Part shown: piece by piece, positions 48,001-60,000 of the stretch
How positions within the stretch are numbered: the stretch's first letter is position 1
How the letters are laid out: every line of letters starts with the position of its first letter
Origin: Escherichia coli
Lineage (GTDB): Bacteria > Pseudomonadota > Gammaproteobacteria > Enterobacterales > Enterobacteriaceae
Direction: 5' to 3' (one strand)
Assembly: GCF_024298765.1 (NCBI RefSeq)
Contig: NZ_CP101210.1
Length of the DNA stretch: 64,000 bases
Position numbers: made by a program

Positions 48001-51000
48001 AATCATTACCATTGGGCGTCGAACCCTCAGTCAGGCCAGTGTTCGACGCCTGCATCAGGATTATTTTATCGGCCTCAACGCAGGCGCTAAGGACTTTCCA
48101 GAGTTCAAGCAAAGAGCCGGGGATAACCACCGCCAGAGCATCACCCTGACCCGAGCGAAAACCCTTACGGTAACGCGCAGTTTTTGACGGTTCGGTGAGG
48201 ATATGAGCAGGGCCAACCAATTGGGTAAGAGTTGTCAAAAAGGTCTTATTATCAGTATGTTTCATGGAGGGCGGCTCTCCGCTCCTTATATCAGGGCCAG
48301 TGAAAATGGCCATAAGTTCATTTGTACGACAAAACAGAATATTCCCTCAATCAATATCCACATGCAATACCCCATTTTATTTCTTTCGGCACCGCTCACA
48401 TTTTTTAATGAAATTACCACTACCACATAATTCATACTCCGTTCTTTTACTGGATGCCAAAACGCTTATTTCATTTATTGCAAAGACCATTTCATACCTA
48501 TTAATGATTAACTCTAATGGGTATTATTATATTTAGTGGTTATTCATATTTAATAAAAAAATAACATTATTTATACAATTATTAACCTTTGTAACTTTAT
48601 TTCACTGAAGCGATTCAGTTTGCATTTTTTATTTTATTATTAAGGTAGCCTCCTTCCCCCTAAATATAGTTAAGTCTAAAAAAGTAAATCGGGAATTGTA
48701 ATGCACGAATATTTAATGTTTGCTCTGGCACTCTCTCCTTTGCTGCTGATGGTATTTTTAATACTGAAATTAAAAATGCCCATCCATTATTCCGTACTGA
48801 TCTCTTTGGTATTCACCGCTGCACTATCGGCAATATTCTGGGAAATGCCCACACAGAATCTGAAAGCCGCGATAGGCTATGGTGCACTGAAGGGACTATG
48901 GCCGATCGTAATTGTTATCCTCGGCGCTATCTTCAGTTATAACGTCATGCAGGCGACCAAAGCGCTGGATATTCTGCGCGATATTCTCGCCAGCATTAGC
49001 GAAGATAAGCGTATTCAGGTGCTGCTGATTTCATGGTGTTTTGGTGGATTTCTTGAAGCCGCTGCGGGCTATGGCACGGCGGTCGCTATTCCGATCGGTA
49101 TTCTCATTGCGCTGGGATTCAACCCGTTGAAGGCGGCGATTGCTTCCCTCGTAGCAAATACCGTTCCGACCGCATTTGGCGCGGTTGGAATCCCGGTTTC
49201 TATTCTGGCAGAGCAGGTTAATCTGCCGGTTTATACCTTAGGCGGAACCATTATTTTGCAGCTCGCGCTGTTTAATATCCTGCTGCCGTTTGTGATTGTC
49301 TGCATTATTGGCGGTGGCCTGAAAGCCATTCGCGGCGTATTTCTGATCACGTTGATTTGCGGCATTTCCACGCTGGTTCCGCAATATTTTGTCGCCATCC
49401 ATCTTGGCGCGGAATTACCCGCCTTTGCCGGTAGCCTGGTCAGCCTGTTTGCCGTGGCGATGGTCAGTCGCCTGCGCAAAGGGAAAACCGATCCCGAGTG
49501 GCGCATTGAGGTCAGCCATACCCGCGAAACCACGCCGCGCTCGGCAAAAGTGTTGTTCCGGGTTGGCTCTATTTATCTGTTTATTTTTGTGTTTATCCTG
49601 CTGTGTTCGCCGCTGTTCCCGACAATAAAAGGCGCGGCATCCCAACTGGCTTCGGTGCTGCATTTCACGTTGGCTGACGGCAAAACGATGGCGCTGAAAG
49701 TTGAATGGGCGACCACACCGGGGATGCTGATCATCTTTGCGACCATTATCGGCGGTTTTATTCAGGGAGCGTCCGCACGTGGGATGCTGGAAGTATTTAT
49801 CAAAACGATTTTCCAGCTTAAAAACTCTATCGTCGCAATTATGGCGATCGTCGCGCTGGCCACGGTGATGGATCTCAGCGGGATTATCTCCACGCTGGCC
49901 CAGTCGATTGTCGATCTGACCGGCAGCTCGTACGTCTTCCTCGCCCCGGTGATTGGCGCGCTGGGCACGTTCGTGACCGGCAGCGATACCAACTCGAACA
50001 TTCTGTTCGGCAAGCTGCAAACCATTGCCGCCAGCAAGTTACATATCGATCCTAACTGGCTGGCGGCGGCCAATACCTCTGGCGCTACGGGGGGGAAAAT
50101 GATTTCGCCGCAAAGCATCGCCATCGCAGTTTCTGCCACCAAAATGGACGGTCAGGCCAACCAGATTATGTCTGGCACCATGAAATACTGCTGCGCCTAC
50201 ATTGTGATCCTCGGCCTGAAAGTCGGTCTGTTTTATTACTGGTTTATGGCGTAAACCATTGTCAACCCCGTCAAATTCGCGGCAATCGAATTTGACGACA
50301 TAGTGACCAAAAAGGTTTACACCGCCCCGGGAACGGAACGAGGCAACAGACTTTACGATTTGTCGGCGCTGACTAAAATAGCGCCGATGTTTCAAATCGA
50401 GGATTGTTGTTATGTTGTTCTGGAAAAAGATGGTGAAGAAGTTCGACGCCTTTTCCGGTGATGCTGCCAACTTACTGATTTAGTGTATGATGGTGTTTTT
50501 GAGGTGCTCCAGTGGCTTCTGTTTCTATCAGCTGTCCCTCCTGTTCAGCTACTGACGGGGTGGTGCGTAACGGCAAAAGCACCGCCGGACATCAGCGCTA
50601 TCTCTGCTCTCACTGCCGTAAAACATGGCAACTGCAGTTCACTTACACCGCTTCTCAACCCGGTACGCACCAGAAAATCATTGATATGGCCATGAATGGC
50701 GTTGGATGCCGGGCAACCGCCCGCATTATGGGCGTTGGCCTCAACACGATTTTACGTCACTTAAAAAACTCAGGCCGCAGTCGGTAACCTCGCGCATACA
50801 GCCGGGCAGTGACGTCATCGTCTGCGCGGAAATGGACGAACAGTGGGGCTATGTCGGGGCTAAATCGCGCCAGCGCTGGCTGTTTTACGCGTATGACAGG
50901 CTCCGGAAGACGGTTGTTGCGCACGTATTCGGTGAACGCACTATGGCGACGCTGGGGCGTCTTATGAGCCTGCTGTCACCCTTTGACGTGGTGATATGGA

Positions 51001-57000: not shown

Positions 57001-60000
57001 GCCTGGGGTGAGGGAGAGATCACCCAGCTGCTGCAGGATGTGCTGGATTATCAGCAAAAATTGGTCAGTGGTAAGGGGCCGCAAACCTACTATATCGGCA
57101 CCCTGGTGGTGTTTGCCCGGGACGATGGCAGTTTCGAGGTAATCGATGGCCAGCAGCGCTTTACTACCCTCTCTCTGCTGGCCAATTGGCTCAAACATCA
57201 CGCGATAGATTCGGTGGATATGAGCTGGTATCAGACCATCAACCTCGCTTTTGAGAGTCGCCCGATATCGAGCCATACCTTCGAGCGCTTATGGCAGGGG
57301 GTTGCCCCCGACGATTTGCGGGGGAGTACCTTCAATGAAGGTTTGGTGAACGGTTTTGAGCTGATTGGCAAGGCAATGGCGGAGCTTGGTTTGGTAGGGG
57401 CTAAACTGACGGCCTTTTGCGACTACCTCTTCAAGCATGTGCAGATCTCTCGTATCGAAGTACCCAAGGATACCGATCTCAATCACTTCTTCGAGGCGAT
57501 GAACAATCGCGGCGAGCAGTTGGAAAAGCATGAAGTGATCAAGGCGCGGCTGATGGAGACGCTGAACCAGATACCCGAGGAAGAGCATCGTCGCCAAAGT
57601 ATTCATATCCTGACCCGGGTATGGGATGCCTGCGCCAATATGGAGCGCTATATCCAGTACGGCTTTACCCCGCAAGAGCGCCACCGTCTGTTTGGTGAGA
57701 GCGACTGGGGTCAGTTTGTGCCCCGTGATTTTGCCCATCTGCTTGATCTGCTAGGATCCCCAAACACGGCCGACGCTGCCGATAAAAGCCGTGCAGCTGC
57801 CGGTAGCCAAGGGCGCACCTTGTTGGCCATTTTGCAGGATGACAAGCTTGATGGTGAGCAGACGGTGGAGGAGGAGAGCGCAGGCTCCGAGCGCTTTAAC
57901 AGCGTCATCAACTTCTCCAACTTCTTGCTCCATGTGCTGCGACTCGTGAGCCGCGACCCGGGTAATACGGAGGGGGTGCCGCTTGATGATAAACAACTGG
58001 TCGATCAGTTTGAGCTGCGAGTGATAAGGCAACCGGATCCAGTAGCGGCAGTTCAGCGTTTTATCTATGGCCTGTTAAAGAGCAAGTATCTGTTTGATCA
58101 GTTCATCATCAAGCGCGAGTTTGCCGATGGCAAGGATAGTTGGAGTCTGAAGCGGCTGCACTGGTATTCGGAAAAGAGCGTCAGTTACATCAATACCTTT
58201 GACAAGGATGAAAATGAGAATGGTTTCTCTGGTGTTAACCGGCGGGTCCTGATGTTGCTGTCGGCGTTTCATGTGTCGACCCCGACCCTGGTTTACAAAC
58301 ATTGGCTGAATGGTGCACTGAGATATCTGTTCGACAATTGTCACCCTGATCAACCGGTGGATGCCGGGGCTTATCTGTCCTATCTGGAGAGTCAGGCTCG
58401 CCGCTTTGTCTTCCAGCGCTTTTTAGCGCCTGGTGAAGGGGCTTCCTATTACCAGATGCTCTACCTTGATAACGCCCTGTTGCCCGCCATCAATGTGGAT
58501 GAGAGTTGGCACAAGGTGATTACATCCAAACTTCGCTTCGGTCATATCGAGAACAACTTTGTCTTCAACTTCCTCGACTATCTGCTGTGGGTACGAGATC
58601 GGAATAGCGACAAAGTTGCTGGCTCCTTTGAGTTCACTTTCCGCAGCTCGGTGGAGCACTTCTCACCCCAGCATCCGATGGATGGCTATAAACCGGTTGA
58701 GCAGAGTGCACTCCATTCGTTTGGCAACCTTTGCCTTATCAGCCACAGCAAGAACTCGCGCTTGAGTAACTTCCAGCCGCAACAGAAGCAGGAGCACTTT
58801 GAAGCAAGCCTTGCCAATAACCAGACTGATAGTCTTAAATTGCTTGCTATGATTCGGCTGATGAAAGATAAAGGTCGTTGGCTGGAAGATGAGATAGCTG
58901 TGCATCAACAAGATATGTTGCAGGTCTTACTATCCAATCAAATTCAGCAATAACGGATTGAATCTGTTGGTGATGCTGCCAACTTACTGATTTAGTGTAT
59001 GATGGTGTTTTTGAGGTGCTCCAGTGGCTTCTGTTTCTATCAGCTGTCCCTCCTGTTCAGCTACTGACGGGGTGGTGCGTAACGGCAAAAGCACTGCCGG
59101 ACATCAGCGCTATCTCTGCTCTCATTGCCGTAAAACATGGCAACTACAGTTCACTTACACCGCCTCTCAGCCCGGTACGCACCAGAAAATCATTGATATG
59201 GCCATGAATGGCGTTGGATGCCGGGCAACCGCCCGCATTATGGGCGTTGGCCTCAACACGATTTTCCGCCATTTAAAAAACTCAGGCCGCAGTCGGTAAC
59301 CTCGCGCATACAGCCGGGCAGTGACGTCATCGTCTGCGCTGAAATGGACGAACAGTGGGGCTACGTAGGTGCTAAATCACGTCAGCGCTGGCTGTTTTAC
59401 GCGTATGACAGGATACGGAGGACGGTTGTGGCGCACGTCTTCGGTGAACGCACTCTGGCCACACTGGAGCGTCTTCTGAGCCTGCTGTCGGCCTTTGAGG
59501 TCGTGGTATGGATGACGGATGGCTGGCCGCTTTATGAATCACGCCTGAAGGGAGAACTGCACGTTATCAGCAAGCGATTTACGCAGCGCATTGAGCAGCA
59601 TAACCTGAATCTGAGGCAGCATCTGGCAAGGCTGGGCAGGAAGTCACTGTCGTTCTCAAAATCGGTGGAGCTGCATGACAAAGTCATCGGGCATTATCTG
59701 AACATAAAACACTATCAGTAAGTTGGAGTCATTACCCAGCTCATCGCGCAGTGAGCCAAAATCCGCATCTGAAGCACGGTCAAAAAGGTAATCCAGTTTG
59801 CGATTTACGTCGCTCAGCTGGTTGGTAACTATTTTCAACCCGGACTCCAGATCACCTGGGCCAGCTTCAAGGCAGCGCCGCAGATACTCTGACCGATTAC
59901 CACCTGAAACCAGGTCTATATAGGCCAAAAGTTCATCTGATACTTTTGCGGTTATTGTTGGCATCCAGTCCTCACTTTGTGCATTTTTTAAACGAAAAAA

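Follow-up and report, generated by a model that had tools for sequence, protein, structure and literature searches.

The 64,000-nucleotide stretch of Escherichia coli DNA analysed here (contig NZ_CP101210.1; referred to as the window) contains at positions 50457-59736 two complete copies of the insertion sequence (IS) IS1 in direct orientation, designated IS1-L and IS1-R, which bracket a block with two genes of the DUF262 type and therefore resemble the ends of a composite transposon. A different history appears to apply, to which we assign a probability of roughly 85%: the bracket is the remnant of IS1-linked deletions or recombination in a decaying genomic island, the two IS1 copies came separately, and the block between them was not moved as a unit. 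An earlier note on this DNA had already preferred assembly by successive insertions and deletions over movement as a unit, and this preference is supported both by a census of the junctions and by the related genomes. The argument is built on observed junction distributions, exact breakpoints, and relatives with and without each of the pieces. The two bracketing elements are as follows.

50457-51224, plus strand: IS1-L, complete, 768 bp, IS1A-type; the junction on its left is old and occurs in other genomes too, the one on its right is present only in this genome.
58969-59736, plus strand: IS1-R, complete, 768 bp, of a divergent isoform; on the right it joins the stbA region, an old junction that a plasmid carries as well.

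The four IS1 junctions were probed with 210-bp queries spanning each of them in a sample of 5,426 complete E. coli genomes, and the plasmid results for the whole unit and for the inner right junction rest on the best-scoring 5,000 records of a 72,556-record collection. The outer left junction, which connects the L-lactate permease gene (labelled lctP here) with IS1-L, occurs in 44 of the 5,426 genomes, that is, in 43 besides this one. The outer right junction between IS1-R and the stbA region is found in 23 genomes at a coverage of at least 80% (about 13 show it as a single piece at 99% or more, about 12 of them besides this genome), and additionally on the IncR plasmid pBM343.2. As for the inner junctions, the one between IS1-L and position 51225 is present in this genome only (1/5,426), and the one between the second DUF262 gene (DUF262-B) and IS1-R in three genomes, namely this one, 50EVA and CUPF09. 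The DUF262-B/IS1-R junction is absent from the best-scoring 5,000 of the 72,556 plasmid records and has no exact match in the species-representative genomes scanned, and neither inner junction has an exact match in the metagenome contigs scanned. The whole IS1-cargo-IS1 unit is recovered at a coverage of at least 80% from one of the 5,426 genomes and from none of the 5,000 best-scoring plasmid records, and the recurrence at other sites with target duplications, for which the earlier note had proposed to compare genomes, is not seen among them. Widespread outer junctions thus go together with rare or unique inner ones, which is the reverse of the pattern of a transposed unit, where the inner junctions are conserved and the outer ones are specific for each site.

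The block is found without IS1-L in strain THO-010 (L006), which carries the same island in the same order and aligns to window positions 36000-43003 through the IS5-family element ISKpn26. Past ISKpn26, where the window has a lactate-utilisation module and IS1-L, THO-010 contains an IS66 element together with some 5.5 kb carrying other genes, and it then aligns to 51225-54741, 54736-55349 and 55348-58968 at 98.9-99.7% identity, with an additional IS100 insertion. No IS1 is present in THO-010 at the left break: window position 51225 aligns to L006 position 16711, which falls within an intact coding sequence for a hypothetical protein (16111-16884), and Hhe is located directly to the right of DUF262-B. 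THO-010 has an extra 14,020 bp (L006 26314-40333) containing Hhe, IS3 remnants, a group II intron, IS30, IS66 and a phytase-like gene. Past this segment, the alignment is taken up again at 58969-64000 (99.74% identity), and the IS1 with which it starts shows 7 differences from IS1-R. Because the alignment resumes at this IS1 and only these 7 differences are found, the stbA-linked IS1 is considered to be the same element in THO-010 and the window. Compared to THO-010, the window therefore lacks 14 kb starting exactly at the left terminus of IS1-R. The same match pattern, with 51225-58968 in the thrW island and no left IS1, is seen in TUM18780 and TUM18530, and the match coordinates for EM20-18-50 and 47-1826 place the IS1/stbA junction about 14-15 kb away from the DUF262 block. 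The same cargo at this site without IS1-L, which had been named beforehand as a finding that would speak against a transposon, is thus present in THO-010 and apparently in the two TUM strains.

A further loss is seen in the near-identical strain 13P460A (L010), which corresponds to window positions 36307-51224 at 99.94% and 61509-64000 at 100% identity. It lacks exactly 51225-61508 (10,284 bp), i.e., the DNA from the right terminus of IS1-L to a point 335 bp into a gene for an ATPase of the TOTE type. Since 13P460A has a truncated TOTE gene and the window an intact one, the window type should be the older one. In both comparisons, window with THO-010 and 13P460A with window, the loss starts exactly at the terminus of an intact IS, as is characteristic of IS1-adjacent deletions. 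A 13-nt match to the right junction of IS1-L (ATTACCAATGGTG, at 62877-62914) was considered as a deletion endpoint and rejected, since the breakpoint in 13P460A is at 61508/61509.

A view on the outer flanks shows that each IS1 belongs to a module of its own. The left flank contains the following features.

41808-43003, minus strand: ISKpn26, a complete IS5-family element of 1,196 bp with the terminal repeats GGAAGGTGCGAA and TTCGCACCTTCC, as annotated in RefSeq.
43004-50456, no strand assigned: lactate-utilisation module consisting of a gntP remnant, lutCBA, dld and lctP (RefSeq).

Together with IS1-L, these features constitute a recurrent 9.4-kb module of the order ISKpn26-gntP'-lutCBA-dld-lctP-IS1 (41808-51224), with the complete ISKpn26 as its left boundary; the same ISKpn26 also represents the source sequence of a 209-bp fragment inside the bracket. 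The distance from the start of ISKpn26 to the start of IS1 is constant (8,648-8,650 bp in the six genomes inspected), whereas the flanks vary, with at least four forms to the left of ISKpn26 and at least five to the right of IS1. This constant internal length versus the differing outside DNA identifies IS1-L as the fixed right edge of the module. As a moved unit, this module is more plausible than the IS1-IS1 bracket, even though two unrelated IS elements form its boundaries. No 4-bp duplication is present around ISKpn26 at 41808-43003, whose flanks read TTAG and CAAG. More than 140 plasmids match the stretch 43217-50457 with an identity of 97%, the best among those listed being large plasmids of Klebsiella and Raoultella, and a Raoultella IncF plasmid (L013) carries the lactate module with an empty, uninterrupted IS1-L site (GACGCCTTTTCC directly followed by GCGTTGATTCC). 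To the right of the lactate-module IS1, LHM10-1 and AH04 contain afuC'-mmuM, which we take to be the site of the resident IS1 of strain K-12; this arrangement suggests recombination of the module IS1 with the resident one.

The right flank starts with IS1-R and continues with two further features.

59737-61091, plus strand: plasmid-type stabilisation segment with the upstream region of stbA, stbA itself (60510-60896) and a truncated stbB-like open reading frame (ORF, 60905-61096).
61174-64000 and past the window end, plus strand: AAA/helicase gene of a predicted TOTE conflict system (PDC-M16A), followed by a TPR gene and IS903B.

The IncR plasmid pBM343.2 contains IS1, stbA, stbB', a remnant of an IS1 end, the AAA ATPase gene, the TPR gene and IS903 in one contiguous block corresponding to 58969-64000 at 98.9% identity. 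Because this plasmid carries the whole block, the module of which IS1-R is part also exists in plasmid-borne form. Many Klebsiella plasmids, among them the first of the matches listed, contain the stabilisation segment at 98-99% identity. The AAA/helicase protein contains the Pfam domains TBP-TOTE and AAA_30 and matches the PADLOC model PDC-M16A with E = 0; as judged from these similarities, its gene and the downstream TPR gene are predicted to form a TOTE conflict system, which accompanies stbA and IS903 both on the IncR plasmid and in this chromosome. A 32-nt remnant of an IS1 right end is located at 61092-61123 (minus strand, inverted relative to IS1-L and IS1-R) and cuts off the stbB-like ORF before the TOTE ATPase gene; it predates the arrival in the chromosome, since the plasmid matches cover the stretch containing it. 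Three clusters just upstream of stbA (60290-60462) comprise about eleven direct repeats, which recur every 11 bp and have the consensus (A/G)ACTACA(A/G)A(T/A)A; they are probably centromere-like sites for the binding of StbA that came with the plasmid-derived segment.

Taken together, IS1-L would be the right end of the recurrent ISKpn26-lactate-IS1 module and IS1-R the left end of the IS1-stbA-stbB'-TOTE-IS903 module also known from the IncR plasmid. At its inner edge, each copy would mark the limit of an IS1 event that affected one end only, namely a deletion adjacent to the element (through intramolecular replicative transposition) or an exchange with another IS1 copy by homologous recombination. 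On the right side, the 14,020 bp between DUF262-B and the stbA-linked IS1 would have been removed from the exact left end of the latter. On the left side, the segment reaching from ISKpn26 to the middle of the hypothetical gene would have been replaced by the lactate module, with the break exactly at the right end of IS1-L. The 7.7 kb in between would then be the surviving middle part of an older patchwork, which THO-010 contains without IS1-L and with the stbA-linked IS1 14 kb farther away.

The properties of the IS1 copies themselves are compatible with this history. Both start with GGTGATGCTGCC and end with GGAGTCATTACC, each contains intact ORFs for InsA (91 aa) and InsB (167 aa) and the frameshift motif TTAAAAAAC (an A-run), and RefSeq labels both as programmed-frameshift transposases. 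IS1 is described as an element of 768 bp with terminal inverted repeats of about 30 bp, overlapping insA and insB genes, and target duplications of 8 or 9 bp (PMC12428005). The two copies show the length, the terminal inverted repeats, the overlapping insA/insB and the A-run frameshift site of this family, and they represent the only two places matching IS1 ends in the chromosome record. The earlier description of two complete IS1 copies in direct orientation was accurate (768 bp each, plus strand, canonical ends), as was their assignment to different isoforms: they are about 94% identical, with 43 differences over 768 positions, and the divergence is higher past the first 300 nt, which show 98% identity. 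IS1-L differs by a single nucleotide from the IS1 of strain 13P460A, and the left junction of IS1-R is located 15 bp past the stop codon of DUF262-B. The 9-bp flanks are GCCTTTTCC (left) and AATGGTGGT (right) for IS1-L, and GAATCTGTT (left) and CAGCTCATC (right) for IS1-R. No duplication of 8-9 bp exists around the unit or around either IS1 in any pairing of these flanks (outer/outer, inner/inner, or per copy), in agreement with what had been reported for the outer flanks. Note that the lack of a duplication around each single copy is expected after deletion or recombination and is no argument against its identity as IS1.

The best surviving alternative concerns only the route and assumes homologous recombination throughout: simple IS1 insertions, each with a target duplication, would have occurred downstream of DUF262-B and in the hypothetical gene, followed by recombination with the stbA-linked and lctP-linked IS1 copies, by which the intervening DNA was deleted or exchanged. 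This is a sub-variant of the history proposed here, which leaves its central claim unchanged, and it is regarded as unlikely in this exclusive form, albeit deserving serious attention. It draws its support from the chimeric IS1 copies at the junctions in 50EVA, CUPF09 and pBM343.2. An alignment of the junction copies shows that the IS1 of 50EVA resembles IS1-R as far as about position 414 and IS1A from there on, while that of pBM343.2 is IS1-R-like only from about position 444 on and that of CUPF09 only at position 127. Moreover, six of the seven sites distinguishing IS1-R from the THO-010 copy are clustered at positions 254-391, where IS1-R agrees with 50EVA, as would fit a crossover; the seventh is at position 751. 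The IS1 halves thus tend to stay with their own flank, which is the signature of homologous recombination among IS1 copies and shows that a recombination route also acts at this locus. On the other side, the postulated primary insertions with duplication were found in no genome or plasmid searched. A synthetic query for the primary IS1-L insertion, composed of the IS1 right end, GCCTTTTCC and the native plasmid continuation, returned none of the 5,426 genomes, and a simple IS1 insertion with duplication was seen at neither endpoint in the genomes or plasmid records searched. With 7 differences from the THO-010 copy, IS1-R can also be the same element deleting outward from its left end. The lack of simple insertions mildly favours transposase-made adjacent deletions for the 14-kb and 10.3-kb losses.

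A composite transposon similar to Tn9, which inserted as a unit and lost its 9-bp duplication by later rearrangement of the flanks, is highly improbable. It would account for the two complete, apparently functional direct IS1 copies with intact outer ends, as known from Tn9 (PMC12428005), and for a cargo consisting of a defence module that also occurs on plasmids. However, the flanking duplication is absent (GCCTTTTCC versus CAGCTCATC), the IS1 copies differ at 43 sites, the unit is seen in only this one of the 5,426 genomes and missing from the plasmid records mentioned above, and both outer junctions exist in genomes or plasmids devoid of it. Furthermore, THO-010 harbors the cargo in the same island and order without IS1-L, and with the stbA-linked IS1 14 kb farther out. 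Some other loci initially gave the appearance of an IS1-cargo-IS1 arrangement (matches H5-H8 and H20-H26, and Klebsiella plasmids, for query positions 2457-11737), and the three inspected turned out to be joined non-collinear pieces. In PittNDM01 plasmid p2, strain 3R and DDG206, inspection revealed a single IS1 upstream of hsdM or truncating Hhe, two of these cases also containing an IS1 5' fragment. Finally, a bracket created by misjoining contigs through IS1 repeats, and not present in the cell, is scarcely credible: the IS1-L/51225 junction is indeed known from this assembly only and the chromosome record is labelled as whole genome shotgun, but three of the four junctions recur in independent complete assemblies, the 43 differences between the IS1 copies argue against a collapse, 13P460A has IS1-L (with one nucleotide exchanged) at the same left junction and a deletion exactly from its right end, and the record is a single 4.88-Mb chromosome in a collection at complete-genome level.

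The history preferred here, i.e., separate arrival of the two IS1 copies followed by IS1-linked losses, has to be weighed against four points. The direction of the events follows from parsimony and the intactness of genes rather than from a dated phylogeny. The immediate ancestor of the inner junction of IS1-L is seen in no genome, the replacement by the lactate module being reconstructed rather than observed, and the junction itself rests on this single assembly. Last, in view of the missing simple insertions with duplication at either site, a transposase-mediated deletion and an insertion followed by recombination are indistinguishable, and the enzymatic route proposed, transposase-mediated deletion or recombination between IS1 copies, is an inferred one.

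Additional relatives illustrate how variable the left part of the block is. The strains 50EVA, CUPF09, DDG206 and 23CRST022 contain the hsdM'-DUF262 block without IS1-L. A truncated ISKpn26 is joined directly to hsdM' in DDG206, 23CRST022 and CUPF09, and in 50EVA only an ISKpn26 fragment is joined to it; recombination between ISKpn26 and the 209-bp fragment could yield at least the form with truncated ISKpn26 next to hsdM'. In TB354, the DUF262 block is wholly lost, with an IS5-family element in its place. In CUPF09 (L008, NZ_CP182142.1, positions 12151-19060), the hsdR-S-M genes of the island itself come next after the IS1 at the DUF262-B junction and are inverted there. This arrangement suggests an inversion associated with IS1, even if the breakpoints show just a single IS1 copy.

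The DNA between IS1-L and IS1-R (51225-58968) is a 7.7-kb patchwork composed of the following features.

51225-51398, plus strand: stub of a hypothetical gene, comprising the last 174 nt of a 774-nt gene (WP_002461143 in THO-010), cut by IS1-L.
51689-52254, minus strand: inovirus Gp2-family pseudogene, frameshifted and abutting IS2 (RefSeq annotation); THO-010 has the same structure at 99.7% identity.
52250-53580, minus strand: IS2-like element, complete, 1,331 bp, with the ends TGGATTTGCCCC... and ...GGGGGCCAGTCTA.
53581-53789, minus strand: internal fragment of ISKpn26, 209 bp, joined to the hsdM remnant.
53790-54917, plus strand: remnant of a type I restriction-modification (R-M) system, consisting of the 3' 857 nt of hsdM (frameshifted) and the first 287 nt of hsdS.
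54918-55450, plus strand: terminal fragment of ISEc52 (IS3 family), aligning to the ISEc52 copy in L013 at 10890-10460.
55467-56918, plus strand: DUF262-A, intact, 483 aa, with GmrSD_N and DUF7834 (Pfam E values of 1.9e-28 and 9.3e-77).
56911-58953, plus strand: DUF262-B, intact, 680 aa, with GmrSD_N and GmrSD_C (Pfam E values of 1.7e-29 and 1.5e-11).

All the contents listed in the earlier note, namely IS2, an IS5 fragment, type I R-M remnants and the DUF262 module, are thus present, with the specification that the IS5 fragment comes from the interior of ISKpn26 and that IS2 is complete. The list was incomplete, however, since it missed the truncated hypothetical gene, the Gp2 pseudogene, the ISEc52 fragment with a 103-bp duplication, and the IS1 remnant at 61092-61123. 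The IS2-like element is about 95% identical to copies named IS2 in RefSeq and represents the sole copy in this chromosome; no 5-bp target duplication is found at its flanks, GAGAT and CCAGG. The 209-bp fragment shows 99.5% identity to 42646-42858 within the complete ISKpn26. The terminal 103 bp of the ISEc52 fragment are present twice in tandem (55246-55349 and 55348-55450), and the second copy reaches to 17 bp before the start codon of DUF262-A. Among the genomes inspected, this duplication is shared only with 50EVA, and it could alter the expression of the DUF262 pair.

The products of both DUF262 genes match the PADLOC models HEC-06 and Orf5, in addition to SspE-like models in the case of DUF262-A, and SspE and mREase_IV models in that of DUF262-B. 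DUF262-B exhibits the domain combination of the GmrSD family (DUF262 plus DUF1524), whereas DUF262-A contains DUF7834 in place of GmrSD_C. Going by these domain matches, DUF262-B resembles a type IV restriction enzyme, and the pair is predicted to represent GmrSD-like defence genes. The protein accession of DUF262-A, WP_000443938.1, is the same as on the plasmid of Klebsiella pneumoniae PittNDM01, whose IncFIB plasmid p2 (L004) also aligns to the type I R-M remnant (5725-6857, 97.6% identity). This plasmid contains a defence cluster in the undamaged order hsdM-hsdS-YecA-hsdR-SprT-[IS fragments]-DUF262-DUF262-Hhe. The DUF262 pair and hsdM'/hsdS' of the window are 97.6-99.7% identical to it and have kept this order, but most of hsdS as well as YecA, hsdR and SprT are missing, with the ISEc52 fragment in their place, and Hhe is missing as well, having been removed by the deletion linked to IS1-R.

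The bracket is located in a long, IS-rich genomic island adjoining a tRNA-Thr gene (thrW), according to the RefSeq annotation, and positions 48000-62500 of the window are 100% identical to the chromosome of E. coli 2020CK-00188 (NZ_ABACVG020000001.1, minus strand). The island extends from tRNA-Thr, located beside proA just past the right end of the window, to a tyrosine-recombinase (integrase) gene at about 26500-27800. Its left part contains a GTPase gene, hsdM-S-R, ISKpn26, the gntP remnant, lutCBA, dld, lctP and IS1-L. The middle part runs from IS1-L via the Gp2 pseudogene, IS2, the IS5-family fragment, hsdM', a short ORF, a DDE (IS transposase) remnant and the two DUF262 genes to IS1-R. 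The right part continues with stbA, a short ORF, the AAA ATPase gene, the TPR gene, IS903B, a transposase remnant, Gp2 and YfjI toward tRNA-Thr. A partial ykgR is found at about 23524-23592, some 3 kb away from the integrase gene that lies at the island's far end, and a full ykgR about 19 kb further at about 4177-4278; this pair may represent the attachment-site duplication of a separate integrative element.

The locus thus documents the stepwise erosion by IS1 of a defence island built from plasmid-related pieces. So far, Hhe and most of the type I R-M system have been lost and the GmrSD-like pair is intact, and 13P460A has lost the whole block together with the start of the TOTE gene. There is a small chance that the bracket, though not born by transposition, is now competent to transpose as an IS1 composite or to excise as an 8.5-kb circle, carrying the GmrSD-like pair to plasmids. 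This idea is derived from both IS1 copies looking intact, and nothing shows that the unit has moved; if true, it would be a defence-gene transposon caught at birth. The main value of the locus is that it calls for caution in general, because a like-oriented IS pair around a cargo mimics a composite transposon, and a census of common versus rare junctions then gives the opposite history. The knowledge of IS1 and of these defence genes is unchanged by the case, which is unusual only in how cleanly the comparison reconstructs the steps.

Among known systems, Tn9 (IS1-cat-IS1) shares with the bracket two full-length direct IS1 copies around passenger DNA, with intact outer inverted repeats and transposase frames (PMC12428005). 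Unlike the window copies with their 43 differences and missing duplication, however, those of Tn9 are identical, and the element moves as a unit and has a 9-bp duplication at its flanks. Of the features of a Tn9-type transposon, the locus therefore shows the two intact IS1 copies, but neither a flanking duplication nor recurrence elsewhere nor outer junctions specific for the unit: it occurs in one genome only, and its outer junctions predate it. Adjacent (replicative) deletions by IS1 have reportedly been described by Turlan and Chandler in 1995 (cited in PMC12428005), and by Reif and Saedler in older work. The losses seen between THO-010 and the window and between the window and 13P460A resemble such deletions in starting exactly at one IS1 terminus, leaving the IS intact and showing no duplication, although the route is inferred in our case and recombination between two IS1 copies gives the same product. 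In E. coli K-12, the argF segment in the CP4-6/thrW region is likewise flanked by IS1. Copies of IS1 at argF and afuB have been listed (PMC12428005). Both loci are thrW-linked island segments bracketed by direct IS1 repeats and prone to IS1-mediated rearrangement, but the passenger genes are different, and in the window each IS1 belongs to a different imported module. The locus therefore fits the known products of IS1-adjacent deletion and the familiar IS-driven decay of genomic islands, representing a real but ordinary example of an already known kind.

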